This document shows, piece after piece, positions 1,824 through 56,217 of a DNA stretch of 64,000 nucleotides (the first letter of the stretch is position 1; each line of letters opens with the position of its first letter). The position numbers were made by a program, and so were the translations under genes. This DNA is from Craspedostauros australis (taxonomy: Eukaryota), in assembly GCA_030167865.1 (NCBI GenBank), contig JALAGF010000911.1:1-64000 (forward strand), written 5' to 3'. The notes beneath the pieces are model-generated. The model saw nothing but the letters and a program-made list of their open reading frames with translations, was not told where the DNA came from and did no database searches.

Positions 1824-3742
1824 TCAGATTGCAGCCTTTCGGTCGGTTGCGTTGTTAGGACGCAGAACGCCGAACTCCTTCTTCCATGGCAAGCAGACGA
1901 TCTCCCCATCACAGTTGTGTTGCGACAGGAATTTATGGGCATTCGGCACCTCCGCCAAAGTGATGTGACGGACGATGTTAGGTTTCACGAAGTTCTTTCG
2001 CAGTAGGCGTAGGAGGATGTCGAGGTCGAGCTGGCAAGATCGATGGCGAGAGGGAAGAATATGTTCGGAAAGAATGCGAAGGTAAGTGGAATGGAATGCA
2101 TCATTTCGGTGAGCGATGATACGTGCTGGCAGATGCCCGAGTGCAAAAATGGTAGAGCACGCTGGTGCACGTGCAAGTTCCACGCACTCGTCCTCCCGTA
2201 ACGTCATACAAAACCAATTAATTCCCAATTTCCGATTGATCATTCCAACGATCAAGCGGCAACCGTTCAAACAGCCATTGGTCGCCAGCGCCAAATGCGC
2301 TGCGCACTGAGATGCTCACTCACCTTGAAAGCCTCCGGATCCTGCTTGAAGCTCTCCCACACATTGTACGACTTGGTCTTGGACATGAGGTTGCGGCTCT
2401 TGAAGTTCGTCCAGTGGGCCGACAGCGAGGCACCGAACATGCCTTGCTGATCGTTGCGAAGGTAAGACGACATTCCCAAACAGATAAGCACCCCATCGCG
2501 TTTCAGTGATGACGCCGGGGAACTGTGCCCATCTTCGCACGTGGCGTCAAATGCAACATCGATTTGATCCTTCAGATCCTCTCTCCACTCTTCTGGATTG
2601 TTCGACAACACCTCGACGTTGAAGGTGGCGCTCACTTGCTTGTGCTTGAAGTTGGGACTTGTGACGTAGATTCTCTCAGCGTTAGCCCTCTTGCAAAGCT
2701 GAATCAACGCCTGCCCGATTGGTTCGTCGGCGCCCGTGATCAGCACCGTTTTGTCCTCAAGCGAGAACTCATCCTTCGTCACCATCCGGATGGATTGGTA
2801 CGCGGTCATGAAGGTGGATACCATGCATACCGCTTCGGCAGGGTCGCATCCCTTCGGTACCTTCACCAGACTGGAATGGGGCACGACGATGTACCGCGCA
2901 TTGCCTCCAGTACGCACCAAGGCCGCAACTTTCTCACCAACCTCAAAATCAATCACCTTGTCACCCACCTGGACTACAGTCCCCACCACATCCTGACCAG
3001 GGATGTTCGGCAGAGAGACTGGATTGAAGATCTCGAAATCGATGCCGCGGCGGATGTTGCAATCGTACGAGGACACCGTCGATGCCTGAATTTGGTCGGA
3101 TGTACAAAGAAGTGGAGTATTGCGAATATACAGCGTTCACGCGGAATCCAACGCAACGCAATGCAACACAGAACTGGTGAGTGTCATCGTTGCACACAAT
3201 CACTGCAAACGATGCAATCCATGCGGCGCAGGGATAGTCTCTCACAGCTCACACGGAACACTCCGACTTACCAACACGCGAACGAGGACCTCATCGTCTT
3301 TCTTGAGCTCGGGGACATCGCTGCGGACGAGTTCCATGTTGTCGTCCACATCATCCCCAAAGTATGAGTACATGATGGCCTTCTGCTTCTTCCCTTCCGG
3401 TCCCGTGAATTGCTTCTTGGTTTCGGCGTCCTCCGTATCTTCGGGCATGGCCTCGCGGTCTTCATCCTCCGATGAGCCAGCACGGTTCCGGTCATCGTCG
3501 AGCGTCCGGCTGTCTCTCTCGTTGTTCTCTGTTCTTATCTCGACTTTGTTGCGCGTCTTGCTCTTGCCTCGGCGCCCACCCCTCAGACGGAAGAAGGATC
3601 TTCGTCCCTTGTGGCTGGAGCTGGCTGCCGTGGCTGTGCTCGTGTTTGCGCTGTGGGTCATGTCGCTGACATCCCCAGCCGATGTGCGAGAAGACTCCGC
3701 CTCTTCTTGCTGTCTGCGCAACGATCCCTTGCGACGGAACAT
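1824..3742 (-). CDS. Medium-chain dehydrogenase/reductase (quinone oxidoreductase/VAT-1-like), 3 exons
   Basis: Exons 3742..3272, 3085..2324 and 2030..1824, GT-AG and phase 0. Joined sequence DEVLVRVL|ASTVSSYDCNIRRG...PNIPGQDVVGTVVQVG...FEVGEKVAAL is a GroES-like MDR domain, followed by the Rossmann segment VLITGADEPIG. Confidence 0.88.
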
Positions 3743-4919
3743 GGTTCTGCTATGACTGTGACTGTTGCTGTTGCTTCGTTATGTTGCGATAGTGTTGTCG
3801 TATTGCTGTGTGATGCTGTGTGATACACCCGCCGTGAGACCAATTCTGATGATTGTGCTTTTGCGATCTGTCTGCAATTTATGCAATCGCATCTCCGACA
3901 GCGACCGAGAATGATGAGATCTGGCGATCTCCACCTCTGTCTCTCCCTCAGTTGCCATGTTGGCTGGATGCAGATTTCGATCGCCATCGTGTGGGATGTA
4001 CTCGCATGGCATGTACCCGTACTGTGGTCTGCAACGCAGTCCAGAATCGAAACACCAACAGCAACAACAACAGGAACAAGAAGAACAAGAACAACCGTGA
4101 AAAACATGGGCAAAACAGCACGAGACGATGCGTGGATGGAGGAATTGCCCATAACCGTATCCAACGGCTCCATTGAGACAGCAACACATGTATCGAATGA
4201 CATCGATCACTAAATAAACGTGTCTCGCACATTCAACAATTGTTAATTCAACGTGTCCGTGCGCGCACGGCGAGGTGCTCGATGGGGTTCACACACGATA
4301 ACCCAATTTATTCACGGAAGTCTTTTTTGTCAGATTTTGTGGACGCAACCCCGTTTCCCACAAATTTGGCTTGGGAGTCGGCGAAGAAAGGCGCACTTGT
4401 GTTTCTGCTTTGTGGAGATGATTCGAGGTGAGAGCAAAAAGTATTCGCATGGCGTGCACACATCCATGTATGCATGCATGTATGCATGCATGTGTGCAGG
4501 TACATGGAGCACAAAGACATTGACATGATGACGTTCCTACCTAACGCTCACGATCGACAGCATCAAGTATTTGTCAGTTGCCATCAACGGCATGCATTTG
4601 CAAGTTCGTTACTCTCGTCTTCGCTGCTCATGTGCGTTTCGTCGTTCATAGGCAAACGCGTCATCAGCAACTAACTGGAGGACGACCATCGCAAACAAAA
4701 GACGGTGGACAATGGAATGGGAGATAGTGATTCTAGGCAGTTTAACGTCTCTTGTCTCCACCATACGAGCTGCAAGTACTCGTACAGAGATTGGAACGAG
4801 ATGCGATGGTGCACTCGTTGGAATCTGAACGGTGCAGGGTAAGGGCAACTTGATGACATGGAATGGTCGTGATATTGATGATGATATTGATGATGACGAT
4901 GGACACGTGGATTGCTTGA

Positions 4920-7900
4920 CTACAAGACGCCAGCCGATCGCTTGCCTCGTCGTTTGGGATCGCTGAGGACGGTGAGACGTCTGGTCTTGTTCGATGTTGC
5001 GACCATCAGCGAGGTGATGTCTGTTGCGGACATGGCGCGAGTGTCGACAGAGTCGATGCCGATGATGACATCGCCGGGGAACAGCGTGCCTCGGAGCCTC
5101 GAAGTGGGATGCACCATGTGCACGATGGGTCCCTCGATGGTCGTGTCGATCACAATGCCCAGCTTGCCTTCCGGCGCCGGCACCAGCCGCTTGATCCAGC
5201 TTGCAGTCGACTTGGGTTGCTGATGTGGTGGGCGCGGCGGCTTCATGCGAGAGCCGTCGCTCTGTCTGCCCGAGTTGTTCGCACCGGGATACGGTTCGCC
5301 AGCGGCGTTGCGCGGAGTCGTCAGCTGATCCAGACCGGCCATGTCACTTGCAAGCGACAGGCTTTCGCCACTGTCGGCGGGGCTCAGGATCTGCGATTCT
5401 GGACCGCCAATGTCGGTGGGGACAGGCGGAATGCTGTTGTCGTCAGAAGAATAATGGGAGCTGGTCTTCGTTCCCTTCTTCGAGGATGAAGATCCCTTCG
5501 AAGCGCCATACACCTCCATCCTGTCCGACCCTGTCATCGTCACTTCGAAACCGGTCGATCTCTCCGGCCTGGCCGAGTAGCTCATGATGGTGCTCTTGTC
5601 GAAGTTATCGGCGTATTCGTAGGTGAACGTTGTGCCATCGTTGCTGGGTTGGCTCGTTCCCTGCGTGTTCGATTCGTCGTTGTCATTGGCATTCTCATTG
5701 TCGTTGTTGACGCCGCTGAGCAGCGATGGTGCAAGTCCGGGTTCCAAGCTGTAGGCATACGACATGTTGTCCATGTTTGTTACCACAGTCCCATCGCCGC
5801 CAACGGTGGCACCATGACCACCGCCGATGATTGTGCCGTTGGGTCCCCATGATGTGTTGGCGTAGCTGTTGCCACCGAACACCGAAGCGTTGCCGTCCAG
5901 CAGGGAGACATTTCCGTCGAAACTGTGCAAAGCCTGTGATTCGAGATCGCCAAGGGATCCTTCGGTGTTTGGTTGCTTCATGTCTTTGGGGAGGTAGAAC
6001 TTGCGTCGTGGTGGTGGGACTGCGTTGTTTGCATTGGCGGAAGCTGCAGTGTTGTTGTTGCCGCTGCTGCCCACTTTGTTGCCGCCGTCGTTGTTGGAAG
6101 AAGAAGGGCGGGGAGGTTTTGATTTCTGTTGTTGTGCCGTCGTGTTGCTGTTCTTGCGGTCTCGATAGGCAACAGATGGATTGGTGATGGTGCCCAAGTC
6201 CGAAAGGATACTGTCGTTTTCAGCTTGATGTTGTGCGCGACTGCCATCCTTGTTCCGTCGGTCGTTGCTGTCGCTGCGGCTGTCGCTCGCTCGATGATCG
6301 CGGCGGCCCTTGCAGTAGAGGTACACGACGAGGATGCCTAGGATGAGAGAGATGATGGCAAAGACCAGACCGAGGATAATGCCGGTATTCATCGAATCGT
6401 CGTTGTTGCCACCGTTGGATCCGGAGCCTTTGTTGACACCATCGTTGCTGCTGGCGTCAACTGGCGGACGGGTTGGCAGGCCGTTGTCTGGGATGCCGTC
6501 GGTTGTTGGCAGGACGATGACCTGTTGCATTGGCTCGAAGAAATCGACGGTAGACTCGCCTGATGCTGTGGCCGCGTACTGCTGGAGATACTCGACGTAG
6601 GTATCACCGGCGGAGAGGAAGAGATATTGCAACTCCTGACCGAGTTGTTTGCCCGCTGCATCTGCATCGCCAGTCGGTGATCGACCAGAGACCTGGAGGT
6701 CGACGTAAAGCAAGCCCAGATCCTGCGCGGCGGCGCCCTGCAGAAGGCGCGTTGTGCGCAGCATGCGCCGGCCTTGTCTCGCTTGCGTGACGAGCTGGAC
6801 GACGACGTTGGTGACCAACATCGGTGAGCCGCCCGAAGGAGGATCGGGCAGTCCGGGTCCTGCGCTTGAATCCAAGAAGTAGTTGCCGATGAACTCTTGC
6901 GTGGCATCGAGGAACACCCGCTCCGTTGGACCAGTGAGCAGAGAGGCCGTGGAACGGATTTCTAGATCCACCCTGCCCTCGATTGGGACGAGAGGAAGTG
7001 GGTCGGTGGGTTGCGCAGATGGCTGCAACGTTGGCACGGCAGTCGGCGATGTGGTTGGCGCCATGGTGTCCGCAACTGCCATTGCAGTGGGTTCCATGCT
7101 TGACATGGTCGGTGAGGCTGAGCTGTCAGTGGGTCCGCCGGTTGCCGTCGGTGCTTCTGTTTGACCCAACTCAGTTGGATTCGCAGTGGGCAGGTCGGTC
7201 TCCTCAGATGGTGCCTGGCTTGGGCTCTGAGTGATAATGGGGAGGATGGTTGGTGATATGGTTGGTGACGTGCTCGGGACTTCGGTGCCGTTCACGCCAC
7301 CATCGGTAGCATTCGTCGAAAGATCGTCGGCTGTGGTTGGTGGCGCGGTAGTGTTGATAGTACCCTCCTCAGTATCATTGCGATCTACAGAGTCGGGCGT
7401 GCTGTTCGTGGTATTGGTGCTGTTGCTATTGTCGACCTCCACAGTGGGGAGCAGAGTGTCCGTGCCGGTTCCATTCTGGGATGTTGGCGCAAGCGTTGGA
7501 GTTGGTGTCGGGAATTCTGAGAGGCCGGGAAATTCCAACGCCGTCTCGCTGGGAGCGGGTGTGGGTGCAGATGCTTCGTCAACATCCATGGCGGTGGGCT
7601 CTGTTGATGGGAAAGAAGTGGATACATTCGCGGTTGTGTTGGTGACAACGGCAGTAAAAGTGGGTGTGGGTGTTGGTGCGGTTGTTGATGTGGCATCCGG
7701 GATCGCTACAGTGAAGTTGGCTGATTCGAACCCACCAAGGGATGGTTTCCCAGACGGCGCTTGGGTTGTGACTTCTGTTGTGTTGTTCGCGCTGGTTGTG
7801 TTGGTTGGCATGGTGGTTGGTGCCATTGTTGCGACAGATGCAACTGGAACGACTGTTGCGTTTGGTACATCAAGTGAAGATGGCGCACTTGTGGGATGTG

Positions 7901-14313: not shown

Positions 14314-15602
14314 ATGGTGAACCTTGCGTTGGGGATTCCATTCCTTTGCTTCTTCATTTCGAGCGATGTGAATCAACCAGACACCCGACATCACAACGCT
14401 CATGATGGGCAAGATTGGTGCCTCAAGTCATCGCGGAGAAGGGAAGATTCTCCATCCACTTCAGCGAAAGAAACGCCGACGCTCACGGTCCTCTTCCAAT
14501 CGGAGCACATCGCCGTGATCGAGAAACCACCACTGGTACCATGCCACTATCTTGAGAAGCAAACGAACCGCAGGACAAAGATCCTGCGAAAGGACAGCAG
14601 CAACGGGAACTCGGATGACCCCGACGCAGAGGAAGTAATCCCTGTCCTCCAACGAGCCTACGCAACGTTCCCGAACAAGGAGGATGGAAGCATCCGCCTC
14701 GTGCATCGCCTGGATGCGGCAACATCTGGCTGTCTCATGCTCGCATTCTCCGCGGAGGCTGCCAAGGAGGCGCAGGATGCGCTGACCAACCACGCACAGA
14801 AGACCTATTACGCACTGTGTCGCGGGAATGGTGAATTCCTGAGACAGCAAGGCGTCATCACAGCCGACGGGCCTGTGAAGGACTCGAAGGGCAAGATGCG
14901 GGATGCTGTGACTGTGATCGAGGTAAATGCGTGTGCCATAACACGGTGTTGCTACGTGCGATGGATGGAAGGGGCGCATTGCGTCTTCACGGAGACATTC
15001 GCCCTCTTTCACTTCAAACACCACGATGCTGCTCTGCTTTTCGTGCAGAGCAAACCAATCGTCGATATCCCCTTCGTGCTACTTATGGCACAATCCACAC
15101 CGCCTCACTCAACTTTGCTTTTCATTCCATTCGACACAATGCATGCCAATGTATCCAGGGATTGTGCGGAAGCGACGGTCCACCACAACGGTGTTGCCTG
15201 GTCCGGGCAAGTCCAAGGACAGGCAGATGGCATCAGATCCGCCAACATCTGGGACGATTGAACCATCCCATCGTCTCCGAAACGAGGCATCATCCAGACC
15301 GAAAGGAGAACAAGGCTTGGAAGATCCATTTCGAAGATCTTGGATACCGACAGCGCTTGTGTTTGCACTGCCATTCCATCCGCATTGGACCGAATGCTGG
15401 CAGTTCGAGTTATGGCGATGGTGAACAAGGCACGATCGATCAATACAAGTATCTTCCACCTGATGGAATCCACATTTCGTGTCCTTTTCCAGCTGACCTT
15501 GAAGCCATCATCCAATCCACCAGCTGGTGTGACGATGCCAAGCGCAGTTTTCCGACATTGTTCGCTCAGGGACCAGGGAAGGATGTAGACAGCACAGGAT
15601 AG
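14314..15602 (+). CDS. RluA/TruC-family RNA pseudouridine synthase, 2 exons
   Basis: Motifs IAVIEKPP, VHRLDAATSG (catalytic Asp), KTYYALC, TGRWHQIRQHL and RLCLH. Exons 14314..14922 and 15159..15602, GT...CAG, phase 0. The start codon is uncertain. Confidence 0.9.
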
Positions 15603-15912
15603 CATCCTAAAATAGAATAAAGTAGAGTCTTCTGATGATGCCATTTCATAGTCCGAGCTACTTGTGTTGAGCTACGCTCACTCCTCTCCAAGATGTTTGC
15701 GCCCAAGATCATTCCGCAAACACCACTGCTGATCCAAATGAATCCCGGATGCCATCAAGCCGAACCCCTCGACAACCACCAAACCAGCCCAGCACACAAG
15801 CCTCCCCATCGCACCACAACTCAGATGATCCATCGCAGCCCCACAACTTGGTAACATTCAAATCTCAGCGATAGGAACAAACAAATTGACGACAGCAGTA
15901 GGAACATCCAGC

Positions 15913-17697
15913 ATGGGAGGCAATTCAGATGAGGAGGATGCATGGGATGCATTCGGGAGCGACAGCGATGACGACGATAATGATAACAACAACGGCAACG
16001 GCAAAAGTGGCGCTGAGCAAACCTGCGACGGTGCTTCGAATGGCAAAGCATCATCAGCAACAGCTGCGACAGCACAAGGCTGGAAAGAGGTTGCATCGGC
16101 ACTGGCTTTGAATCTTTCACAAGAGTTCCTCAAGAGCAACGCCCAAGTCAAACTGCAGGATCGCGTCGTCGGGCTTGCCATCAGCCAAATCGATGAAAAT
16201 GGGAGTAGCGGTAACACCACTACTAGTATTACCGGCGGTGATTGGCAACTGCTGGAGCGAGCAATTCGGCAGCATGTCCAACAGAGGGGCATTCAGATCA
16301 CATCACCCAGCGGGATCACATGCACAGAATCCGCTATGAGCCCCGATACAACAATCGAAACACAGGAAGCGGACAGCAACAGTTTGGATGCACTGATCAT
16401 TGTGGATGACGCACAGCAACAGAACGACATCTCAATGGTGATGCCAGGAGGTATCATTATGCTACTATTGCGCCAAGCATCTGGACGTTCAGTCTCGATC
16501 GAAGATCTACCCGACCATCTTCGAAAGCATGTTGCAAAGTCAACCATCAAGACGATATACTCGAACGAAAGCAAACACAATACGCTCGGTCCTTCGATAT
16601 CCCTTCTCGCCATGAAGAAACACTGCATCCAAGCCCATACCTCAATTTGCCCTTGGTTGCCATCATCTCACAAGATCACGACAGAACAAGCCTTCCTGGA
16701 AGATGCGACGACAACGCTCTCGGCATCCGAAGCCCGATCATCGACCATGACAGAGCATTCCATCCAAAGGGCGGCAAACGCCTTATCGAAGCACGGCTAC
16801 TGCATCATTCGGCAGATCCTCAATCCGCACGAATGCCAGCAATTTGGAAACGCAGTACTCCAAACTGTGCATGATGCTGCGAAGATCCTGAAGGAGCGCG
16901 ATCATGTTGACATTTACAATCCGCAAAACTCCGAATTCGAACCCCAAGCCTATCAGGAATTGTCGATGCGCGAAGATCTGCGATTGGATATCCGACATGG
17001 AAGCCAGCTATCGAAGTTGAGGAAAAGCATTGAAGGGAACAGTGGCGGCGATGGCAAAGACGACGATGACATTGGCAACGCCAACCGGATCGTCAAGTCC
17101 AACAACAGAACAACGTCTACAACTCCGGATGGTTTCTTGCGCGGCCACAAGGACTTGCTGGACATCGTGCGCACCTGCATGAGCCCCAAGGACGAAGCTC
17201 TGTACCGCGGCAACATGGGCCGATACAACTTTGAAGGATCGGGACCCGACGGTAGTTTCCAGGATCTGCGCGTATCACCCGTCGGCGGCATCGTCAGCTT
17301 CCCCGGCGCCGCCGAACAGGCCTTGCACGCCGACACGCCGCATCTGTTCGAGCACGTTCCCGACCTGCCCGCGCATTACGTCAACATCTTCACGCCTGGG
17401 GCCGCCTTCGACGAGGAAGTCGGCGGGACGGCCTTTGTGCATGGCTCGCACGATTTGCGATTCACGGCCCGGCACTGCGGCGAGGCCGACGACAACGTGT
17501 ATCCCTTCCTGGTGCGTCCGTGCTTGACGTTGGGCGACGTCGTGATGTTCGATTGCCGCATCCTGCACTTCGGGCTTGCCAACAACTCCAAGACAAAGGA
17601 GCGGCCGTTGCTGTACACCAACACCACCCAGGCCTGGTTCCTCGATCCAAAGAATTGGAACGACAAGGCACGCATCTTCGAAGAGCACGGCATCTGA
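15913..17697 (+). CDS. Fe(II)/2-oxoglutarate dioxygenase, phytanoyl-CoA dioxygenase (PhyH)-like
   Basis: HGYCIIRQIL, QALHADTPH (HxD), GGTAFVHGSH, GDVVMFDCRILHFGLAN (distal His) and ERPLLY (2OG-binding Arg). Long uncharacterised N-terminal region. Confidence 0.85.
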   Translation: MGGNSDEEDAWDAFGSDSDDDDNDNNNGNGKSGAEQTCDGASNGKASSATAATAQGWKEVASALALNLSQEFLKSNAQVKLQDRVVGLAISQIDENGSSGNTTTSITGGDWQLLERAIRQHVQQRGIQITSPSGITCTESAMSPDTTIETQEADSNSLDALIIVDDAQQQNDISMVMPGGIIMLLLRQASGRSVSIEDLPDHLRKHVAKSTIKTIYSNESKHNTLGPSISLLAMKKHCIQAHTSICPWLPSSHKITTEQAFLEDATTTLSASEARSSTMTEHSIQRAANALSKHGYCIIRQILNPHECQQFGNAVLQTVHDAAKILKERDHVDIYNPQNSEFEPQAYQELSMREDLRLDIRHGSQLSKLRKSIEGNSGGDGKDDDDIGNANRIVKSNNRTTSTTPDGFLRGHKDLLDIVRTCMSPKDEALYRGNMGRYNFEGSGPDGSFQDLRVSPVGGIVSFPGAAEQALHADTPHLFEHVPDLPAHYVNIFTPGAAFDEEVGGTAFVHGSHDLRFTARHCGEADDNVYPFLVRPCLTLGDVVMFDCRILHFGLANNSKTKERPLLYTNTTQAWFLDPKNWNDKARIFEEHGI

Positions 17698-17756
17698 CTC
17701 TCAACAGAGTAAATAGGTGTAACAGAAGGAAGCGTTGGGAACCAAATCATAACAAA

Positions 17757-17788
<32 letters not shown>

Positions 17789-18098
17789 CGGCAGACTTCC
17801 CTGGTCCTGCTTCGAAGGGTTTGCTCCAATTGCATTGACAGTACAAGTAGTCGCATGCTACCGGAGTGTATGTCAGCAATCGATGATAGTGCTTACTCTC
17901 TAGATTCCTCTTTGTACTGTGCGTCGCGGGAACGAAGCTTGGCGCCAACCAAATGCCCTCGACGAAAACAACACAGAACAACGCAGAACAACAACAACAT
18001 CAAAAGTAAGATTTGAGCATTGGCCATTCATCATCAACATCATCAACATCACCAACATCACATAACCAACGCACACGGATGCAAGAAATGGCTTGGAG

Positions 18099-19352
18099 AT
18101 GACGCAAGGCACACAACCGCGACGACAAGCGCGACGACGAAGCAGGGGCGTTGCGTTGGACAAATTGCTGGCGGCCATTCTCGCCATGATTGCGTGCGTG
18201 GTGACCATCGTCAATCTGGCGGCGCTGCACCATCTGGACTCTTCCGTCGTCATCGGAAAGGACATTGTCGGCACGCACGCTGCTGTCAACCGAACCAGCA
18301 AGGAGCGGCTGATCAAGATCCTGAAGTACGCCAGCGTGGCAGAGCCGGAGCGGCTGCGCGATCAGCTGCCGACATGGGGCGAAGTGATGGACCGGTTTGG
18401 CGACAAGCAGCACACGTACGGATTGGATACCTGCGAGGCGTACCGCAAACGCGTCAGCATCCATCGGCGATTGATGGCACCGGCCGGCACGTTCAACAGC
18501 GGCACGAACTTCCTCTTCGACGTTCTGCGCAACGCCTGCAAGCTGCCTTGGCAAGGTCCCGAAAAGGGCAACGAGGGCGTGTTTTGGCAGGTCAACTGGG
18601 GCAAGCACCAGCCTCCCAGATTTCGAATGGAGCATCATTCCAGGCCGCAGCTCATCAACCAGGACTACCTCCCCATCGTCATGGTGCGCGATCCCTTCAG
18701 CTGGATGCAATCCATGTGCAACGTGCGGTACGCCGCGCACTGGTTCCACGTCGTGGCACGCAGCAAGAACTCCACGGATGATCCGGCGCACTGTCCCAAC
18801 CTCATCGCAAACGACATCGACCGCAAGTGGCTGGACACGGATCCCAAGGAACTGCGGCAATACTACGACCGCGATCCGTGGAAGGTCGACAATATCAAGG
18901 ACAAGGCCAACTTCACCATCAACGCGACTCGCGTCCCGGTCCGCGTGCATTACAAGACGGCCGACCTGTATCACGACACCTTGCTCGACATGTGGGTGGA
19001 CTGGTACGGCGAGTACGCCAACGCGACGTTTCCGCGATTGATGGTCCGTCTCGAGGATCTCGTCTATCATCCGCACGAGGTTCTGACGGAAATCTGCGAT
19101 TGCGCCGGCGGCACGATGAACTCCAAGGTGCGGTTGACGGCGAAGTCCGTCAAGATGGGCGCCGACAACGTGCATGGAACGGATCACACCGATCTGGCCA
19201 AGGCCATGGCGAAGCATGCACGGCAGAACCGGACGTACGGTATGACGCAGGACGATCTGGCCTACGCCAAACAGCTCATTATGTCAAGCAGAGGCCAGCA
19301 GCTCATGGAGGCATTTGGGTACACCGTGCCTTCGGATGTGTTGCAGGCATGA
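18099..19352 (+). CDS. Type II membrane sulfotransferase-like protein
   Basis: Basic tail and TM anchor. PAPS-binding-like motifs PAGTFNSGTN and VMVRDPFSWMQS, plus WGKH and VRLEDL. Confidence 0.72.
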   Translation: MTQGTQPRRQARRRSRGVALDKLLAAILAMIACVVTIVNLAALHHLDSSVVIGKDIVGTHAAVNRTSKERLIKILKYASVAEPERLRDQLPTWGEVMDRFGDKQHTYGLDTCEAYRKRVSIHRRLMAPAGTFNSGTNFLFDVLRNACKLPWQGPEKGNEGVFWQVNWGKHQPPRFRMEHHSRPQLINQDYLPIVMVRDPFSWMQSMCNVRYAAHWFHVVARSKNSTDDPAHCPNLIANDIDRKWLDTDPKELRQYYDRDPWKVDNIKDKANFTINATRVPVRVHYKTADLYHDTLLDMWVDWYGEYANATFPRLMVRLEDLVYHPHEVLTEICDCAGGTMNSKVRLTAKSVKMGADNVHGTDHTDLAKAMAKHARQNRTYGMTQDDLAYAKQLIMSSRGQQLMEAFGYTVPSDVLQA

Positions 19353-19670: not shown

Positions 19671-21806
19671 ATGCTCTGCTATCGTCATCCGCTACAAATA
19701 CGTCGCGATCTCTGCCTCAGGCGAAGCAAGTTGAACCGGATGATGGCGACGAGGAAGACGCTGAGACAGGCGGCGTACAAGCTGATGACAGCGAGGAGCT
19801 CGCCCAGCATCCTCGATGGTCCCAGCTACCAAACGCAAGGCGCCGACAAGGCGTTCGGGGAATCGGCAGCGCTGTCGGAACTGGCGGACAACAAGCTCGT
19901 CTTCTGCGGAGAGATCCATTCCCGTCCGCCCATCGTCGCATTCCAGCAGGCGCTGCAGCAGGAGATGGCGCAGTCCGCGCAGAAGCTCCACGTTGTGATG
20001 GAACATTTCTCGTTGGACATGGATGGGCTGCTGCAGCAGTACCAGAAGGGCGAGATCGACTTTGAGCAGCTCAAGCAGCAGTACAATGACCATGGTAGCG
20101 AGGGGCATGACCTCGATCCCTACAAGCCCCTCCTGGAGGATGCCCGCGAGCATAATCACAAGATCAAGCTGCACGGAGGCTTCATTCCACGCCAATTTGC
20201 GCGCGTCCTCATCAAGGACGGCATCGATGCGGTGCGTGAGCAGACCTCCCCGGAGTGGTTGCCCATTCAGATCAATCTGGATGGCACGGACTTTCATTAC
20301 AACGTCTTTGAAAGCCTGATCACGGGGCGTCCCTTCTTCGAGTCTACTCCGCCCACGGACGGATTCCGAAAGATCTTCAAGGCGCAGGTTCTGAAGGACG
20401 TCTCCATGGCCAACAAGGTCAATCAGCTGCTAGCTGGGGAGGTGGCGGATCAGCAGCGGCGCGATGGTGGAAGTGGTGAGCATGTGCATACGCATGCGCA
20501 GGGCAAGGAGAATGTCGTTCCGACAACGCTGGCATCGGCACTAACCATGTCAACAGCGGCAGGATCGTCAAAGGCAGACGAAGGAGCAGCATCGTCAGCA
20601 GGCGTAAAGCAAGAACCAAAACTAGAAATTGGCGATGGAAAGTATGTGGCATCAGTGAAAGTTGAAGATGATCGTGCCAGAGACACTCGTAACGGTATGA
20701 CCGACCAGACGGAACCTCGTGGTGATAAATACCTCGTAATCGCTGGCAACGGCCATCTCATGAATTACTGCGGCGTACCAGAACGCGTGCTGGAGGCGCA
20801 TCCGACCATGGCAGGTGAAACCAGCTTGGTCTTGTCCATGAGCTCCACGGTCGACCTGGATGACGATGAGGCCTGCAAGGACGACATTCAGTCCATGTAC
20901 GGTCCAGAAGGCTCCAATCCTGCCGACTACATCTACCTCTACCAAGACGAGGAGGAGATGGCGAAGGAGGAAACGAAAGCCGCATACGATAAGGTGGGCG
21001 AATCTGCTCACCTGGAGGGCAACATGCGCAAGGCTCAGGCCATCATGTCCGCGCTGGGCTACACCGAAGAGCAGTTCCAGATTGCGGGTGCCGATGCGTA
21101 CAACTACCAGGGCGTAGGAAATCCGCACATCCATGCAAACATCCAACCAGGCGACGTTGTCCTGGACATCGGCTCCGGCCTCGGCATCGATTCCTTTATC
21201 GCTGCCGCCGCCACGGGACCCGCCGGCAAGGTCCTGGGCATCGACCTCAGCTCGAAGCAAGTCGAGCATGCCCGATCGCGAGCCCACGATCGCCGCCAAG
21301 CCAATCTGCAATTTGAAGTCGCGGACATGGAACGTTTGCCCATCCCCGACAACAGCTTCGATGTCATCATTTCGAACGGCGCCTTCTGCCTGGCTCCTAA
21401 CAAGGAGAGGGCCTTTGCCGAAGTCTTTCGCATCCTCAAACCCGGCGGCCGCATCTCCATCTGCACATCGACCATTCAGGATGAATCGTTGGAGCCTGGC
21501 GTGAATTGGCCCAGCTGCATGAAGCTGTTCGTCGCCAAGACCACCATCCAACCCATGTGCGAGGCGCTGGGATTCGTGGAGGTCCAGATCGATGGCAGCG
21601 ACAGTTCCATGTCCATGGAATTACCCGCGGAGGCCCTGGAAGGCAGCAATCCGGATCGCAACAAGGTGCACGTGGGTGGCGACGAGTTCAAGCATCTGGA
21701 GTCGTACGACATGGACAAGCTGTGCGCGCGAGTTGTGGTGGTGGCACGCAAGCCGTTGGAGGAAGGGCACCAGCCACACGACGACATCTCGGACGCGAAG
21801 CAGTAG
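19671..21806 (+). CDS. Fusion of a ChaN-like (EreA/TIKI superfamily) domain and an arsenite-methyltransferase-like SAM methyltransferase
   Basis: N-half motifs LVFCGEIHSRP, VVMEHF, YKPLL, AQVLKDVSMA and VIAGNGH...GVPERV. C-half motifs YQGVGNP, VLDIGSGLGIDSF, GKVLGIDLS and FDVIISNGAFCLAPNKERAFAEVFRILKPGGRI. Single uninterrupted ORF. Confidence 0.8.
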   Translation: MLCYRHPLQIRRDLCLRRSKLNRMMATRKTLRQAAYKLMTARSSPSILDGPSYQTQGADKAFGESAALSELADNKLVFCGEIHSRPPIVAFQQALQQEMAQSAQKLHVVMEHFSLDMDGLLQQYQKGEIDFEQLKQQYNDHGSEGHDLDPYKPLLEDAREHNHKIKLHGGFIPRQFARVLIKDGIDAVREQTSPEWLPIQINLDGTDFHYNVFESLITGRPFFESTPPTDGFRKIFKAQVLKDVSMANKVNQLLAGEVADQQRRDGGSGEHVHTHAQGKENVVPTTLASALTMSTAAGSSKADEGAASSAGVKQEPKLEIGDGKYVASVKVEDDRARDTRNGMTDQTEPRGDKYLVIAGNGHLMNYCGVPERVLEAHPTMAGETSLVLSMSSTVDLDDDEACKDDIQSMYGPEGSNPADYIYLYQDEEEMAKEETKAAYDKVGESAHLEGNMRKAQAIMSALGYTEEQFQIAGADAYNYQGVGNPHIHANIQPGDVVLDIGSGLGIDSFIAAAATGPAGKVLGIDLSSKQVEHARSRAHDRRQANLQFEVADMERLPIPDNSFDVIISNGAFCLAPNKERAFAEVFRILKPGGRISICTSTIQDESLEPGVNWPSCMKLFVAKTTIQPMCEALGFVEVQIDGSDSSMSMELPAEALEGSNPDRNKVHVGGDEFKHLESYDMDKLCARVVVVARKPLEEGHQPHDDISDAKQ

Positions 21807-22064
21807 AGCATGAAGCAAGAATATAATAAAACAAGAGCGCTACGAGTACAATCCCTTCTCTACCTATTGCATTGCGTCGCATTGTCGAATGCTCCATTTG
21901 TCTTCCGTTGCGTTGTCTTGCCTCCCGCGATGCGAAAGCCGTCCGCGACACAATACAAAATGATCCTCTCTGAATTGGTTCCAAAAAGACTTGATATTAT
22001 GATCACAGAGAGAGCCGGTAGGTTCTGATGCACAGCCGATCCAGGAGGCACACGCTTCGCCCGC

Positions 22065-25085: not shown

Positions 25086-26878
25086 CTACATCGTCAGTTG
25101 AGGAGCACCAAGACCACCACCCATGGTTGTCGCCGGTGCTTGAGCAGGTAAGTGTCCTGCTCCAGCAGCAGATCCGTCATCGGCAGGAGCATCTTCTGCG
25201 TCTCCCAGATCCCCAAAGTCCATGCTATCATTCGAAACTGGTTGCTCTCCAGGGAGGAGCTTGCCGTGTTCCGGATCCGAGGGTTCTGGCGATGCCACCT
25301 TCACGATGACGCCGATGTAGTTCACGATGTTGTTCTGGGCGTCCCGCAATGCCGCAATGAAGAGCTTGTTCCAGAATGGCGTGCCATCTGCCATGTAGTT
25401 GATCAATGTGATCGTCACGTCCTCGCCGCTGGCCAGACCCTTGCTGATCTCCTTTAGCTTTTCTTGGCTGGTCTCAGTGCCTTGGAGGAAGCGGCAGTTG
25501 CGTCCCAGGACATCATCACGCGAGTACCCGGTGATGGTGAGGAAGTCGTCGGATGCGAAGACGATTGGATTGTCTTGCAGGCTTGGGTCCGTGATCACGA
25601 AGCTGTGCTGCGAGCCTTGGATGCTGCGGACAAGGTTGAAGTCTTGCTGCGCCATGTCCCTGGCTTGCTCGCCACACGCTTCGAGAACTGCGGGTGGCAT
25701 TCTCTCTGCCGCATCGCATTCGTCCAAAATACGTTGGCCGTCTTCGCCCTTGAGCTTGTCCCGAACGATTCCCTTCAATGCTGCATTTTCCCGCTGCAGG
25801 TCCATGACTTCCTTCTGCAAGGACTCGAAGAAGAACTTCTTTCTCAACCGCGTTCTTCGCGCGAGGATGCGGTTACGTTCCCTCCTGCGGTCGATCTGGG
25901 CCTGGGTCTTCTTCCTTCCTCGGCCTTGCAGTGCTGCGGCGACTGCCGAGGGATCGGTCAAAACTGCTGACGGCTGTCCCATCATGGCGCCGTCCAGCCT
26001 CCTGCGTTTCGTCACGTTGACGTCCAGCAGGCCCGGCTGGAGCATGGGGGCTGGTGCGACAGGCGGGTGCGCCGCAATTGGCATGTGCGGCAGTGGCGCT
26101 GGTCGCAGTTGGGTCACCGCCTGTACCACCGACGAGACAGCTGGGGCTGCCGCCATGGCTTGTTGCTTCAGTGGGAGGGTCATGAGGCTTGGCGGTGCGC
26201 CCATCGGAGCTGAAACGGAGGCAACCGACATGAGCTGCTTCTGTTGCTGCTGCTGTGCCACGTGAGCAGCATGCTGGGTGATGATTTGCTTCACATGAGC
26301 CACGGAATCGTTGGGCTGTGTTGGGGCATGCATGGTAGGCGCGGAGCCATCGTCACTTTGTTCTGGTGAAACGATGCCAGAGCTACCCCCACTTTCATCC
26401 GCCGAGGATGAGCATGGGCAACCATCATGGGTTCGTTGGATTCGATTGATTCAGAGTAACCGAGTGCACACGCACATACGATGAAAGGAACCAGAGCGAT
26501 GGGTTATTGTTGTTGTTGCTTTGCTGTGAGTTCAGTAGTCTGTGGAGTGCGAGGTGATTGATAAATTGGCAGTAGCAGTGGCAGCAGCAGTACAGAGTTG
26601 GCATCAGTTCCAACACACGGCAACACTCGGAACAACAAAAGACAACGAACAAACATGTCTTTCCCGAAGTTCACTCACTTGAAGTCAAAGTTCATCGTGC
26701 TGGCAGTTGCCGGGCCATCATCGAGGAGGTACTCAGCCAAGAGATCGAAGTCCATGGAGTCTGCGCCACCTTCGGTGGAGTTCCACTGATCGGTTGCCTG
26801 ACCTTCAGGCTGCAACGCGGGCTGACTGGGTTGGCTGACGGAGCCGAATACCGGCATGGACATTGCTGCGTTCGACAT
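25086..26878 (-). CDS. AUREO2: Aureochrome (bZIP-LOV), class 2 type, 2 exons
   Basis: bZIP QIDRRRERNRILARRTRLRKKFFFESLQ and LOV DNPIVFASDDF...GRNCRFLQG...FWNKLF. Exon 1 26878..26679 (MSNAAM...MDFDLLAEYLLDD...FDF, donor GTGAGT). Exon 2 starts at about 26391 or 26382, both phase-compatible AGs. Confidence 0.9.
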
Positions 26879-36424: not shown

Positions 36425-39400
36425 TCAGCAATCCACCTCCTCCGAGTCGGTGGAAAAGGCGATGGAAACATCGTCCACCGTTTCATCTGTCAAGGTGGGC
36501 GGGCGGATGTCGGCCGTTGCCACCGAGCCCCTGGACACGGTGCTCTTGGGTTTCAGGGTCGGCGTCATGTCGATGTTCAACGTGTCGTCCTCGACCACCG
36601 TGCTGGCCTTCGTCGACTTGTTCGATGACGTGTCGTCCTTGCTGTTGCTGTTGTTGAAGAGAATCACCTCCTCCTGGCTGTGCAGTACGACCGCGGTGTC
36701 CACCTCAGCGCATTTGGATTCTTTGTAGCGCCGCACCATTCTCTCCACGATGGCTTCGCCCTTGTCGGCCCATTCCCTGCGGTTGTCGATGGCGTAGTTC
36801 AGACATTCGTCGATGCTTACGCCGAAGATGCCGCACTTCTCCAGCTTGCCGGCCAACGGGATGATGTAGTTGTCGAAGAACCACAGCTCGCCCTTGTACC
36901 AGCCGAGCGATGGGTCCTTCATGGCGCGTCCGTTCTCGTACGCTCTGTACATCTCTTGGAACAGCTTTTCATTCCACCTGGTGTACACTTGCCAGTCTGC
37001 AGTGGTAAAATGGAGAACAACATGGGTAAAATAGGTGAGCGAGCCAGTGAGTAAGTGATTGAGTGAATGGAAGACGCGCATTCGTCAATTGGAAGCCAAC
37101 AACAACAACCGAACATTCATTGATGTGCAATTATCATTGGATGTATCGAGAAGTATTCGCCAAGCGGATAACGAGCATTGAGAGCAAGAAGTCGAACTTA
37201 CGTTGCATGGTGTGGGCGACGTCTGCCGCCTGGATGATTGCTTCGATGACGATGGAGGCCTTCAGGTCGGCATCCTGGTTGTCTGGATGGAACGCCTTCT
37301 CCCATCGGTTCTTCTGCATTTCCTTTCCAGCCTTGTCGAAGATGTCGGTGGAGATCACCATGTTCACGACCATCTGACGGAAACGCATCAGTTCCGATTC
37401 ATCCGCGAACATGCACTGCTGCAGATTGCTGAATGCGGAATCCGTCAGCATGTCCCAGGCAATGTCGATCGAGTTGGATTCGGCGATGCTGCGCGATCTG
37501 TACTTCTCTGCCATCCCAGGATTCTCCTTGCCGAGCTGAGCATTGGAAACGCCAGAGTGATCAACGTCGTGCACGAGCGCGGAAAACATAATTGCGACGT
37601 GCGTCAACGGATCTGACGTAATGCCGAAGGTGTAGTCATGAAGATCGGATGCGATGGCCTTCACGGAGCTGCGGTGGTAGTTCACATCTTCAGGCTTCAC
37701 AATTCGGCTCAGCAGCTTGCTGGCCGACATGCAGACGTGCGATGCGTGCGCAAAGTTATGGAACGGGTTGCCTTCGTGGTACAGAGCCGCGATGCGAGTG
37801 ACGTACTCGCGGAGCTCTGACATGACCTCCTTGGGGAGTTGGATCGTGGTTGGACGAGCTCTGGCCTTCGCAGCCCGAGGATCGAACTGCGGCATGTTGA
37901 TCGTTTCAGACACCTCGTCGACTACTGGCTCTCCTCGGGTGACGACGTTGGCCGGATCCTCCATAGGATTCGACATGTCTCTCCTGCGACCGGCGGACAG
38001 TTGCTTCAGCAGCTTGGCGAACAGATCCACCTGCCAGTCAATCCACCGCCCGTACTTCAATGCAAGCTGCGAATTCATCGTGTCGCTGACTTGCTCTGTG
38101 ATGTTCTCGTCGAAGCCCCATACCGATCCATTGTCGCTCATCAAGCTGCCTTCGTCCGACGTCTCATCGATCTGGTTGTAGCGAGACGGACGAATCGATG
38201 CCTTCTTGATGGCGCTTCGTTCGCTGCCGTCTTTCGGTTCCCTCGCCGTTAGCACCCAGTATGTTTTCACCGCACCCTTGCCCTTGGCATACACAACGTC
38301 GCTGCGTTCCAAGATCCAGTTGGCCTTGCCAGCCTGGATGAGCTGGTCCGCGGTGGTGTTCGAGATCTGGATCCGGCTCCTCATCCCTGTGCTCTCCATA
38401 CGCGACGCCGTATTCACCGTGTCACCAAATAGCTGGAAGCGAGACTTCTCGCCGCGCAAAACACCTGCGGTGACTGGTCCGCTGTGCAAGCCAAACCTCA
38501 TCGTCAAATCACCGGTGCCCGGTCCAAGCTGCACCTCCAGTTTCTTCGTAATCTTCGCCACCTTTTGCATGCAAGCACGTGCGAATTTCGTCATTCTCAC
38601 GGCGTGGTCTGAATAGAGTAAAGCGTCATACGAGTATTGTGAAGAATGGAGGGTTTGGGAGAGTTGAGCATTTCATTCGTGTTTGAGGTATGTCCGTTCA
38701 TCGTCGTTGTCACGATGATGATGGACAAGACAGAAGTGCGTGTGAGAGAGGACGGCTGCATGTCATCACATTCGATAGATTTACAAACAGTACAGGCGTA
38801 GCGCTGCTGCGAATCATCGCTGGTTGTCGCTTTCGTGGTGTAGTAATATGTTAAATGCAGTGCAGTGCAGAACAACATCGTCCAGCACAGCATGATAATG
38901 GGTGGTGGTACTTACCATCTTGACGATCAGGACATCCAGTGACTGCAACGTAGCAGTCTCCAATCGTCTGAAAGACGAAACAACACAAAACAAAATGCAA
39001 CAGTACGTGTGTGGTGGGAACACCCCGAATAAACGAATGGAGGAACGAACGAACAGATGGATAGGTGAATGATTGAGTGAGTGAGTGTACGGATGCATGC
39101 ATGAATGGACCGAGATGTGCATGAGTCGTTTTGCACATTAGTAGAGCATGCAGCAGACGAACTTGATAGTCAAATTGTATCAAGTTGCTGGACGTCCCAC
39201 ATGACGTTGCTTGTGAGGAAACGACACCAACCCACCAACCAACCAAGTGAGCAAGCACAACATGACGAGAGCAGACAAAGCAAAAGAAAACGAGGCAATC
39301 ACACCGTACGAGTAGAACATACCTCCACCTTGTACACAGCGCGACGTCTCGCTAGGATGTCAAATGATTGGAAGATGGTTTGCAAGAGCGTGAATACCTG

Positions 39401-45039: not shown

Positions 45040-48000
45040 ATGAGCATATCGCAACGCGCCGTCGGCGGCTTTGTCGATCTGTTGGATCTTGGCGACGATG
45101 GTGGTGATACTCAAGACCGCGATGACGATGATGACAATGATCATGATGATGACAATGATGATGACATCGTGGTGATGTCTGATAGCAACAATGATGGCGA
45201 TCCCCATGATGGTATGCAAGATGACGATGACAAGTCGACATCGAGCGAAGTGACACGAGGACAGGAGCCCGACACAGACAAGGCCAACGAACTCAAGTTC
45301 GCCGAGATCTGCAGAAGGCTGGAGAACTGCTGGAAGCACCGACACGGCCGCCATTCCATCAACCAAAAGAAGAGGCTCAAGCACACGGAAATCCTCACTC
45401 ACATCATGCCGGCCAAGCTCCTCGAGATGATGGACGGCCAATCCATCTATCCCTTCCTGCGATTGCTCATGCCGGATATTGATTCGGCGCGCATGCACAT
45501 GGGCATGAAGGAGCGCAACATCATCGCGGCGTACTGCGATTGCATGGGCTTTCGCGAAGGTTCTGCTGCGGGGGACATGCTGCGCAACTACACCAACCCG
45601 CACAAGGTGCCGAAGGAGCTCATGGCCGGCGATCTGTCGCTGGTGGTGCAGCACGCGGTGACGGACAGGGTGCCTCAGCAGTTCTCCTCCATCACCGTGG
45701 GCGAGATCAACGCATTGCTGGATGAGCTCGTCGAGTTGGCGAAACCGCCGTCTGCGCGGCGCGGCAACGCGGATGACTCGGGAGACACCAAGCCGCCGTG
45801 GCAACGATCCAGCCAGAACCAGACCTTGAGGGCATCGCAGGCGCAGGGCATCTACTCATCTCTCGAAGGCCTCTCGCAAAGTCAGGTGATGTCCGCCTCG
45901 CAAGGCATGACCTGCAATATGCTGAGCCAGGGATTGCTGTCGGCGCTGGAGACCAACACGAACATCAACAGAGGATCCTCGGCGACCCCAGCATCCTCGA
46001 GTCAGCGGCGCAGCAAGAAGATCATGCGCCAAAACTGGTTGCAAAAGGTCAAGAGCCATGGACTGTGCCCGTTGGAACATAAGTGGCTCGTTCGCATCCT
46101 TCTCCAGACGCTCGAATTTGGTGTTTCGTGGAGATCCATACTGAAGGTAAGCAACTTGATCGCAACACCATACTCTACCCTATTGGATTGTGTGACAATA
46201 CATCGTAGTATGGCACATTGCATTGGATGAGGTTGGATTGAGTAGATATCCATCGGAAGATTCTGCGAATGGAAATGCCGTGCTCTCCATTCTCATTCAA
46301 CGCCTTCCACACGCTCACTCCACTCTCTTTTGCCATCGTACTCCAACCTACCCACTCATCGCAACGCAACCGAACGGAATGGAACGTGCTGCAGTGGTAT
46401 AGTCCATTCGCAATTGAGCTTTGGAATGCGCACAACGACCTCAAGAGCTTGTGCGACCAGCTTGCCGATCCCGATTACCACGCGCGCAGAGAAGCTCAGC
46501 GCAAGCTGCAGCAGGAGATCATGGAAGGCAACGCCTCCAGGTGGGAGCCGCAAGTCGAACCGGTGGTCCTGCACAACACCATCTCGCCAATGCTCTCCAG
46601 CAGAGTATCCTTCGCCAAATGCATGACCAGCTTGCAGCTGAATCACGGAAAGTACATCAGCAACCACGTCGATAAGAAGAAGCGGGGCAAGTTGCTCACG
46701 CTGCGATTCCCACCCATCTGCTCCGAAATCAAGTTGGATGGAGAGCGTTTCATCGTCCACATCTCACACGGCACCGTCACGATGCAAACCAGGCGAGGCA
46801 ATTGGTACAGCCAGCTGTATTCGCCAGTCCTCGGCCCGGCCATTCGCAGATCGATGCGCCGATTCAAAAATCTCGACGTCATCCTCGATAGCGAAGTCAT
46901 CGCATGGGACGACATGCGCCAGGAAGTTGTTCCATTTGGTGGCAACCGCTCCGTCGCCTTTGCTCGACGTGCATACATGCGCAGAATGGGCTTGGCGGAA
47001 GACATCGATCACAATCTGCACAGCGATGCGCCCAGAAACGTATTGGTTATGACCGAGAAGGATGATTTCAAATTCTCGTACATAAAAGACAACTCGCACA
47101 ACGCAGAAGATGATGATCCTGGCGAGAAGTGCTGGCTCATGCTGGTCTCATTTGATATTCTGTACCTCAAAGGCAAGGATTCCAAACGGTTGCTGGAGCT
47201 TTGCAGCATCCCGCCCACAGACAAGGGAGGACGTTCTGCGACCGGCTCCATCCTCCACTTGCCAGCGATGCACCGCAAGAGAATCCTGCACACGCTCATC
47301 GAAGAGCAGCCGCACGAGGTGGAGATCTGCAAGTCTATGGTCATACGCCCCACCGGTGACCACATCGATGGCGAGCAGTACTTCTCAACGGACAAGGAAC
47401 TGACGGAGTGCGGACATCCCGTGTGGAAGCTCGATCTTACGCAGGAAACCTTCCGCGAAGATATCTCAGACCTTCTCGCCATCGACGACCAGCGTCGTCA
47501 GCGCAGGAGCACGACGGAAATCTCCATGATGCGATCCAATGCCATCGATGCATTCTACAAGGAGGTTGTTGAGAAGTACCAGATGGAAGGTCTCGTCATG
47601 AAAGACCTGGCATCACCGTACGTGCTGGGAGAGGCATCGAGGGGCAGGAAGTTCTGGTGGAAGTACAAGCCGGATTACGAGAAGACTGGTGCGACAGATA
47701 TTGACGTTGTCATCCTGGGTGCCTACTTTGCATGCGGCATGAAGACTTCGGGCAAGCCGTCGCGGTTTCTTTGCGGATGCCGCGACTCCAAGCAGCCTTC
47801 GACGTACATGACATGCTTCAAGGTCAACGGCTTGACGACCGACTACGATACGTTGGACATGATCCTGGGATTGACGGGCTTCAAGACAGCATCCAGAAAT
47901 CACGATGCCGAACTCGGCAAATGGTACCGCCACGAAGATCATGGAAAGGGGTTGCCTGATTTCATTTCGGAACGGTCCTTGGAACGTTCCTCCGAGGGCG

Positions 48001-55927: not shown

Positions 55928-56217
55928 ACCAGCATCGCCATGGTCATTTGCAGAAGTCATGTCCATGTCGATGCCCATGCAGTTTGAGTGTGATGCAACC
56001 CAGCAAAGTGTTTTGATGGATCCACATTTGTCCGAGACTTCGTGATGCGTCCACTCCGTCATTCGCAGGAAATGGCCCGAAGACCGTGAAGACCGTGAAG
56101 ACGATACCTCAATTCAGTTGGGCCTCATGGAGTCTTCTGAACTCAAGTACTCTCCTTGCATAGTACTAGTCCGCATTCCATTAGACTGGCTACTCGCCTA
56201 TCGAAATCATCATCTAC

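Follow-up and report, generated by a model that had tools for sequence, protein, structure and literature searches.

A conserved fusion of a ChaN-type domain with an ArsM-derived methyltransferase in Craspedostauros australis, with a possible link to tetrapyrroles

Results and Discussion

We analyzed the first 64,000 nucleotides of contig JALAGF010000911.1 (assembly GCA_030167865.1, forward strand) of the diatom Craspedostauros australis, hereafter the window, and focused on an open reading frame (ORF) in which a ChaN/TIKI-fold domain precedes a methyltransferase domain derived from the arsenite methyltransferase ArsM. The ORF belongs to an enzyme family that is genuine, conserved and, so far as we can tell, undescribed, and that is assembled from two known folds. 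As to its function, we tentatively prefer, at somewhat less than even confidence, an enzyme with hydrolase and methyltransferase activities that would be tied to haem or another tetrapyrrole and would not be the arsenite methyltransferase of the cell. The features of the gene are as follows.

19671..21806, + strand: whole ORF of 711 codons (ORF listing and translation), single copy in the genome by genome search
19671..19739, + strand: residues 1-23, Arg-rich in-frame extension, probably 5' of the true start Met24 at 19740 (from the homologue N-terminal motif, model confidence and codon composition)
19758..20468, + strand: first part of the ChaN/TIKI-fold domain, residues 30-266, with E81 (19911), H83 (19917), E111 (20001), K242 (20394) and D243 (Pfam, alignments, fold match)
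20469..20720, + strand: insert of some 85 residues (267-350) that the model shows as disordered, either a recent insertion or an in-frame intron (linker length, codon composition, model confidence)
20721..20948, + strand: second part of the ChaN/TIKI-fold domain, residues 351-426, with the G-x-G-H362 motif (20754) and GVPER (alignments, fold match)
20949..21761, + strand: ArsM-derived class I S-adenosylmethionine (SAM) methyltransferase domain, residues 427-697 (Pfam, NCBIfam, fold match, alignments), with V482 (Cys72 position of ArsM, 21114), the SAM motif DIGSGLG, D525, G570 (Cys174 position, 21378), C573 (21387), C598, C616 (Cys224 position, 21516), H667 and C685

Two domains with intact-looking active sites

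A preliminary description of the stretch, made from the letters alone, had proposed that one ORF joins a ChaN/EreA/TIKI-type domain to an ArsM-like domain, and profile and fold comparisons bear this out. Pfam PF04187 matched residues 68-255 with 107.8 bits (gathering cut-off 27.7), and Methyltransf_31 matched residues 492-608 with 97.4 bits. The top NCBIfam match was PRK11873, arsenite methyltransferase, with 159.7 bits; the curated cut-off of 263 is non-discriminating here, as the canonical ArsM of the same genome also stays below it (187.1 bits). In an AlphaFold model, built from an alignment of 82 of 118 sequences (predicted local distance difference test, pLDDT, 83.2; predicted template modelling score, pTM, 0.76), residues 462-696 had ArsM 4fr0 as top structural match (Z 21.7, root-mean-square deviation 2.5, 207 residues aligned), and residues 30-426 matched the ChaN protein 2g5g (Z 20.1, root-mean-square deviation 3.5, 235 residues aligned). 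When the N-terminal domain was folded alone, the Z scores were 19.9 for ChaN, 14.7 for HopBA1, 14.1 and 14.0 for BcR136 and BcR135, 13.5 for EreC, 10.1 for RRSP, 9.9 for PMT and below 8 for the remainder. The closest solved fold is that of the haem-binding ChaN, ahead of HopBA1, BcR136/135 and EreC, which we count in favor of a tetrapyrrole-related role.

The nearest match among solved folds, Campylobacter jejuni ChaN (2g5g, also PF04187; Z 19.9-20.1), aligns at the GExH, E, QxxKD and GxxH positions, which in the ORF are found as GEIH (80-83), MEHF (110-113), AQVLKDVSMA (238-247) and GNGH...GVP (359-370). Identity is 15-17%, and the bacterial ChaN is a free lipoprotein, whereas the domain is here joined to an enzyme. 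The Ere/TIKI hydrolases (EreC 6xcq, BcR135/136, RRSP 5w6l) have the same core fold (Z 10.1-14.1) and the 2His/2Glu set in common with it, but they are less similar than ChaN, and their substrates (macrolides, Ras/Rap1) differ. In the passages on which we draw, EreC, BcR135/136 and RRSP are not reported to carry an ArsM-like domain.

All four residues of the tetrad (E81, H83, E111, H362) are kept in 98 of the 106 dereplicated ChaN domains, and six of the eight exceptions are proteins without methyltransferase. K242, which aligns with the Lys of ChaN QQFKD, is Lys in 105 of the 106. The same 2His/2Glu set is catalytic in EreC (PMC7979712) and RRSP (PMC6254334), the correspondence being drawn by motif and strand position, not from a printed structural alignment. 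ChaN itself has been described as a haem-binding dimer of uncertain role (PMC3417520), and C. jejuni ChaN carries GEKH, LEM and GSYH at the tetrad positions. Only two stretches of 2g5g were aligned, and the Tyr region of ChaN did not align. In C. jejuni ChaN, the haem-ligating residues are a Tyr iron ligand and propionate contacts, and haem induces a dimer with two cofacial haems. Because the complete hydrolase tetrad is kept, the domain is probably an enzyme and not just a haem binder; the preliminary description, which had noted the link of ChaN proteins to haem/iron handling, missed the full tetrad.

On the methyltransferase side, the SAM-site residues D499, G501, G503, G505 and D525 are invariant in 82 of 82 aligned rows, and one chain holds two intact-looking active sites. 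Prediction of a complex between the domains (26-425 and 427-698, with SAM) scored 0.00 in both runs, for which the alignment was not used, and speaks neither for nor against an interface.

Rearranged cysteines in the methyltransferase domain

We collated 162 dereplicated methyltransferase domains, among them 55 from fused proteins, 45 from a stand-alone sister subfamily described below and 31 comparison rows that were chosen by an intact SNC motif and hence have Cys174 by definition. Cysteine numbering follows alignments to CmArsM and PMC5552862. The preliminary description had noted GVGNP (21111-21125) and SNGAFCL (568-574) in place of the usual ArsM motifs and a retained cysteine in WPSC (613-616), and the alignment confirms V482, G570 and C616 at the three positions. 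The Cys72 position holds Val in 55/55 fused and Thr or Val in 45/45 stand-alone rows, as opposed to Cys in 30/31 of the SNC-selected comparison rows, and the Cys174 position holds Gly in 55/55 and 45/45. The Cys224 position is kept (52/55 and 44/45). A new cysteine, C573, is present in 55/55 fused and 44/45 stand-alone rows and is replaced by Asn in 29/31 comparison rows. Other new residues are nearly invariant in the fused rows, namely C598 (47/55), H667 (52/55; 36/45 in the stand-alone rows) and C685 (52/55). In the AlphaFold model, C573 lies three residues past the lost Cys174, on a short helix (571-574), and we infer that it would face the same pocket.

Cys72, Cys174 and Cys224 are conserved in all ArsM orthologues retrieved in PMC5552862, and most ArsMs need four cysteines (PMC8552651). 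Compared with ArsM/AS3MT (CmArsM 4fr0/4kw7, CrArsM 5evj, human AS3MT 8xt7; PRK11873), the family has the fold, the GxG-N-P / SNxxxL / W-x-x-C framework and Cys224 in common, but it has Val or Thr for Cys72, Gly for Cys174, no Cys in the Cys44 region, the new C573, C598, H667 and C685, and, in the fused form, a ChaN domain; moreover, the methyltransferase domain of the fusion stops near the start of the long C-terminal part of ArsM. A separate, canonical ArsM with four cysteines (ACC, YYGCG, SNCVINL, WGECL) is encoded in the same genome on contig C485 (L007 1492-2574; C-terminal end GGCC), and the methyltransferase of the fusion is 31% identical to it over 160 residues. We count both the loss of Cys72 and Cys174 in all fused rows and the presence of this second enzyme in favor of the tetrapyrrole-linked reading, in which the protein is not the arsenite methyltransferase of the cell. 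The interpretation in the preliminary description is partly supported, any substrate being a prediction. The domain is ArsM-derived but lies outside ArsM by the defining cysteines, and it may act like ArsM on another substrate.

The fusion as a family

Both domains are present in 115 of 117 homologues, with the ChaN domain N-terminal in all 115, and the fusion is found in four MMETSP transcript ORFs marked complete (P0038, P0044, P0063, P0069). With these counts, the fusion is not a matter of chance or mis-assembly, and the complete transcripts speak against two separate genes, an alternative that had been raised in the preliminary description. Carriers include Cylindrotheca fusiformis, Nitzschia inconspicua, Seminavis robusta, Fistulifera solaris, Amphora coffeaeformis, a Psemu1 model and Amoebophrya, to which a profile search adds the copepod Tigriopus californicus and Abedinium; as judged from these database sequences, the family is spread far beyond the stramenopiles. 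The search across stramenopiles and bacteria that had been proposed for this architecture returned a mostly eukaryotic enzyme family that is also present, in reverse order, in a narrow lineage of marine archaea. By motif, no relative of the fused type was found in GTDB or viral contigs: fused-type motifs occurred in 0 of 18 pattern hits in GTDB prokaryotes and in 0 of 26 in viral contigs. A search with the stand-alone alignment recovered the family motif in 2 of 80 kept loci, both archaeal, and an ArsM-like gene was present within the fetched flanks of 0 of 40 bacterial ChaN loci.

The architecture is already reflected in automatic names, such as the JGI name 'SAM-dependent methyltransferase/uncharacterized iron-regulated protein', and in two Atlas clusters of 57 and 65 members. 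Labels of the 'arsenite methyltransferase' type are attached to the proteins of Nitzschia inconspicua, Seminavis robusta, Fistulifera solaris and Tigriopus, and arsenic-methylation surveys that count such labels in diatom or copepod annotations may include an enzyme with another role. Literature searches, in which subscription journals were thinly covered, found no paper describing the ChaN-ArsM-like fusion, and nothing on it came from PMC5398495 or PMC8939145, in agreement with the earlier statement that no characterised protein with this architecture was known.

In a quick tree of the 162 rows, fused and stand-alone members form one branch (121 rows, Shimodaira-Hasegawa-like approximate likelihood ratio test support 95) that is separated from the SNC-type ArsMs and has a stem of 1.3 changes per column; the same branch had support 99 in a 26-row tree. 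We count this long branch of its own in favor of the tetrapyrrole-linked enzyme. The ChaN-less sister subfamily, with the motif SNGGFCL, comprises 45 dereplicated rows and has support 82 by itself and 91 once the archaeal pair is included; its members or cluster members include Bodo saltans, Fabomonas tropica, Telonema subtile and a dinoflagellate. Nineteen further ChaN-less rows fall inside the fused clade. One of these, P0147, has an N-terminus of its own with two Cys-Pro repeats; most of the others resemble fragments. As a separate observation, several methyltransferases of about 410 residues with PF10851 (P0380, P0385, P0387, P0388, P0399) also do not have ArsM Cys72 and Cys174 (SNG-x-L-N-L); they adjoin the family in the 26-row tree (support 87) and are a possible source lineage.

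In marine euryarchaea, the methyltransferase comes first and ChaN second (a cluster of 67, MBF26215.1). This form was found at two GTDB loci and at eight metagenome loci with archaeal neighbours in common, and it is 43% and 29% identical to the two domains of the C. australis protein. In an even sample of the archaeal order, one of 251 genomes, which are incomplete, was positive, and this was the centre genome itself. The 162-row tree places the archaeal fusion beside the stand-alone subfamily (support 91), but an approximately unbiased (AU) test on 26 of the 162 rows did not reject a grouping with the N-fused forms (p 0.51); in a FastTree phylogeny of the ChaN domain (77 of 108 rows), the archaeal fusion joins a chytrid protein, with a long-branch warning. 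Given the AU result, an independent origin is not established, and the archaeal form may reflect a second fusion or a domain swap of one old fusion. In either case, the domain pairing survived a change of order. The recognised neighbours at the archaeal loci are housekeeping genes (menaquinone, primase, Fe-S, FdhD). At locus L018, futalosine-route menaquinone genes and an IscA/FdhD/molybdopterin oxidoreductase group lie near the fusion (2803-6147 and 14544-18131), with no operon link evident.

A stand-alone ChaN of the same subfamily was named from the chytrid Cladochytrium. A partner search for stand-alone ChaN with P0258 returned only P0258 itself, and the Atlas gave generic bacterial ChaN. 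The C. australis genome has two further ChaN genes, as stand-alone ORFs. Three other proteins (P0219, P0224, P0242) combine FAST/RAP RNA-processing domains with a following ChaN domain of this subfamily, in which the residue corresponding to His83 is Tyr and which is probably non-catalytic.

Cys-Pro repeats in the stand-alone sister subfamily

Among the 36 stand-alone rows with a usable N-terminus (of 45), 18 have an N-terminal Cys-Pro, 16 of them two or more. The stand-alone N-termini contain 51 Cys-Pro dipeptides, compared to a mean of 7.3 and a maximum of 15 after shuffling. The preceding residue is Lys in 35/51 and Lys or Arg in 38/51, and Tyr or Phe follows in 35/51, so that the motif is mostly K-C-P-Y/F/H. 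Controls showed no such excess, with 14 Cys-Pro in fused forms versus 12.5 after shuffling, and 9 among the 161 cysteines of SNC-type ArsM N-termini. By sequence, the repeats fit the haem regulatory motif, a Cys-Pro core with a basic residue before and a hydrophobic one after it (defined in PMC4127239). Repeated motifs of this kind are common to the sister enzymes and to proteins such as HO-2, Hap1 and ALAS (PMC4127239), with the difference that haem binding in the sister subfamily is putative and that the C. australis protein itself has no such Cys-Pro repeats. The methyltransferase family is thus associated with two unrelated haem-type modules, ChaN and the Cys-Pro repeats, and the earlier lean toward haem or tetrapyrroles receives an independent hint from the latter. 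A further motif, C-S/T-H-A-R/K, is mobile: it is present in 18/45 stand-alone and 3/3 archaeal members, N-terminal in some and in a C-terminal loop in others.

Possible function and alternatives

For an enzyme acting on haem or another tetrapyrrole, the following course may be envisaged. The ChaN domain would bind a tetrapyrrole-type molecule and hydrolyse an ester or amide bond via activated water, as Ere/TIKI enzymes do. The methyltransferase would then transfer the SAM methyl group to a carboxylate or sulfur that is exposed or bound, with the new Cys and His residues (C573, C616, H667) keeping it in place. In some organisms with the stand-alone methyltransferase, the N-terminal Cys-Pro repeats would supply the haem contact, and haem might be either substrate or regulator. 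In favor of this reading we count, taken together, the tetrad in 98 of 106 domains, the Cys-Pro excess in the sister subfamily and the reverse-order archaeal pairing. In this family the ArsM scaffold has acquired a new set of cysteines, and it is combined with a haem-type module in three ways (ChaN at the N-terminus, ChaN at the C-terminus, Cys-Pro repeats). The family may offer a testable handle on the eukaryotic role of ChaN and a candidate for unassigned tetrapyrrole chemistry of the plankton.

Several observations weigh against this reading. A common fold does not show function, and Ere enzymes, RRSP and PMT share this one without haem. Retention of Cys224, together with C573 three residues from the lost Cys174, may mean that a metalloid-binding pair persists. 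In the surroundings of the gene within the 64-kb window, and at the archaeal loci, we recognised no genes for haem or chlorophyll, and cyclopheophorbide was not detected in Fistulifera solaris, a carrier of the fusion (PMC6775998). Half of the usable stand-alone rows (18/36) do not have Cys-Pro; the alternation of Cys-Pro and ChaN mostly tracks two clades and amounts to about two independent observations, not dozens; and Cys-Pro dipeptides also serve as redox switches (by a title cited in PMC4127239). Substrate, haem binding and activity are all predicted, the substrate from indirect hints.

The new cysteines could also belong to a variant metalloid methyltransferase, in which C573 and C616 take over from the Cys174/Cys224 pair in binding an organo-arsenic(III) substrate (or one with Sb, Se or Te), and the hydrolase frees the metalloid from a conjugate or trims an arsenosugar or arsenolipid precursor. 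Some ArsMs work with just two cysteines. ArsM is the top match both in structure and in NCBIfam, C573 and Cys224 are kept in nearly all rows of both subfamilies (55/55 and 44/45; 52/55 and 44/45), ArsMs methylate organo-arsenicals such as AST-OH (PMC8552651), and diatoms produce arsenosugars and arsenolipids (PMC5552862). We nevertheless regard a metalloid substrate as rather doubtful: Cys72 and Cys174, conserved in all ArsM orthologues surveyed in PMC5552862, are lost, a canonical ArsM is already present in the genome, the archaeal copies have no recognised ars genes in their vicinity, and the Cys-Pro repeats, rare in ArsM N-termini, would be left unexplained. The repeats and the ChaN-type partner would be equally unaccounted for by a thiol or selenol S-methyltransferase, which we consider unlikely. 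Here a metal bound by C573, C616 and H667 would activate a thiol that the hydrolase has released from a thioester or a conjugate with a peptide. Zinc-thiolate methyl transfer occurs in other enzymes, the Cys-Cys-His set is nearly invariant in both subfamilies (H667 in 52/55 and 36/45), and the S-methyltransferases GtmA and TmtA are among the fold matches, although not above other methyltransferases.

The tetrad bears on whether hydrolysis is needed at all. C. jejuni ChaN, too, has GEKH, LEM and GSYH and yet is described just as a haem binder, and Cys-Pro motifs are regulatory, not catalytic (PMC4127239), as one would expect if the ChaN domain did no more than sense haem and thereby turn the methyltransferase on or off. 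Distant eukaryotes and the archaea, however, retain all four catalytic positions along with much of the pocket (98/106), and 6 of the 8 exceptions do not have the methyltransferase, which makes a pure sensor quite improbable. We give hardly any credence to an ordinary arsenite methyltransferase with a passenger domain, or to an annotation artefact joining two genes. The database names in Nitzschia inconspicua, Seminavis robusta, Fistulifera solaris and Tigriopus are in its favor, but they seem to have been transferred by similarity ('Similar to arsM' in one case), the cysteines that matter are substituted, and the artefact is largely refuted by the 115 of 117 homologues, complete transcript ORFs included.

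A more specific form of the tetrapyrrole-linked enzyme, which we consider very doubtful, would have the family supply missing tetrapyrrole-detoxification enzymes of aquatic grazers and algae. The ChaN-fold esterase would de-esterify chlorophyll or haem that has been ingested or damaged, after which the freed propionate would be methylated by the ArsM-derived domain; in phagotrophs, this methyl ester might serve as the activated intermediate from which the ring closes to cyclopheophorbide enol, by a chemistry that is itself conjectural. The enzyme forming cyclopheophorbide enol is stated to be unknown in PMC10640588. The compound was found in Bodo saltans, Telonema, 3 of 5 chytrid cultures and many dinoflagellates (PMC6775998), and Bodo saltans, Telonema, dinoflagellates and chytrids are product-making groups that also hold stand-alone family members. 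This overlap is weak, the trait being very common among grazers. Diatom cultures, including those of Fistulifera solaris and a Nitzschia sp., were negative (PMC6775998), which speaks against cyclopheophorbide synthesis by the diatom protein; in this scheme the fused form would need to halt at an earlier step or use another tetrapyrrole.

Gene model

An N-terminal motif of the H/Y-R/K-L-V-G type is present in 84 of 117 homologues, starting at or before residue 20 in 75 of them, with a median position of 14. Its equivalent in the C. australis ORF is at residue 36, which points to Met24 (19740) as the probable start, with the most Arg-rich part, residues 1-23, upstream of it. Residues 1-30 have pLDDT 41-52, and GC content at third codon positions (GC3) is 0.62 in the region of residues 1-23, compared to 0.78-0.80 further downstream. 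The preliminary description had likened the N-terminus to a mitochondrial presequence. The first 25 residues of the homologues are indeed basic and acid-poor (mean 3.0 basic and 0.6 acidic, 74 rows), so that targeting is still possible, but the conserved motif is a beta-strand (36-40) within the ChaN-aligned part (30-426), so that most homologues could hardly accommodate a cleavable presequence; the suggestion is thus weak.

The segment between the motifs that flank the insert is 115 residues long, versus a median of 28.5 in 116 homologue rows. The insert has GC3 values of 0.54 and 0.35, compared to 0.70-0.80 in the flanking domains, a pLDDT below 50 across 273-342, and one match only in the genome. 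There is a donor-like GTGAGC at 20476, and in-frame GT-AG pairs are present in the region. As a stop-free in-frame intron of this size has a chance of only about 2% by our own arithmetic, we favor a translated insertion of residues 267-350 over an in-frame intron. One sequencing run, whose RNA nature was only guessed (share 0.20), covered just 21409-22000 in two contigs, and no conclusion was drawn from it.

Neighbouring genes in the window

The ORF directly upstream of the fusion (18093-19352, + strand, 419 amino acids) contains a signal-anchor-like stretch, and Pfam gave no match to it at E 0.1; by motif it presumably resembles a Golgi sulfotransferase. A PhyH-family 2-oxoglutarate dioxygenase with a long acidic N-terminal part lies 2 kb upstream of the fusion (15886-17697, + strand). 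On the - strand, 25086-26333 encodes bZIP and PAS/LOV domains, as in an aureochrome-type blue-light transcription factor. At least five consecutive ORFs in 51649-63702 match glycosyl hydrolase family 99 (endo-mannosidase-like), two of them with PT repeats, in a tandem expansion on both strands. A piece of a guanylate cyclase/phosphodiesterase gene (37134-38594, - strand) and a DNA ligase that extends over two ORFs (45040-49676, + strand) are probably interrupted by introns.

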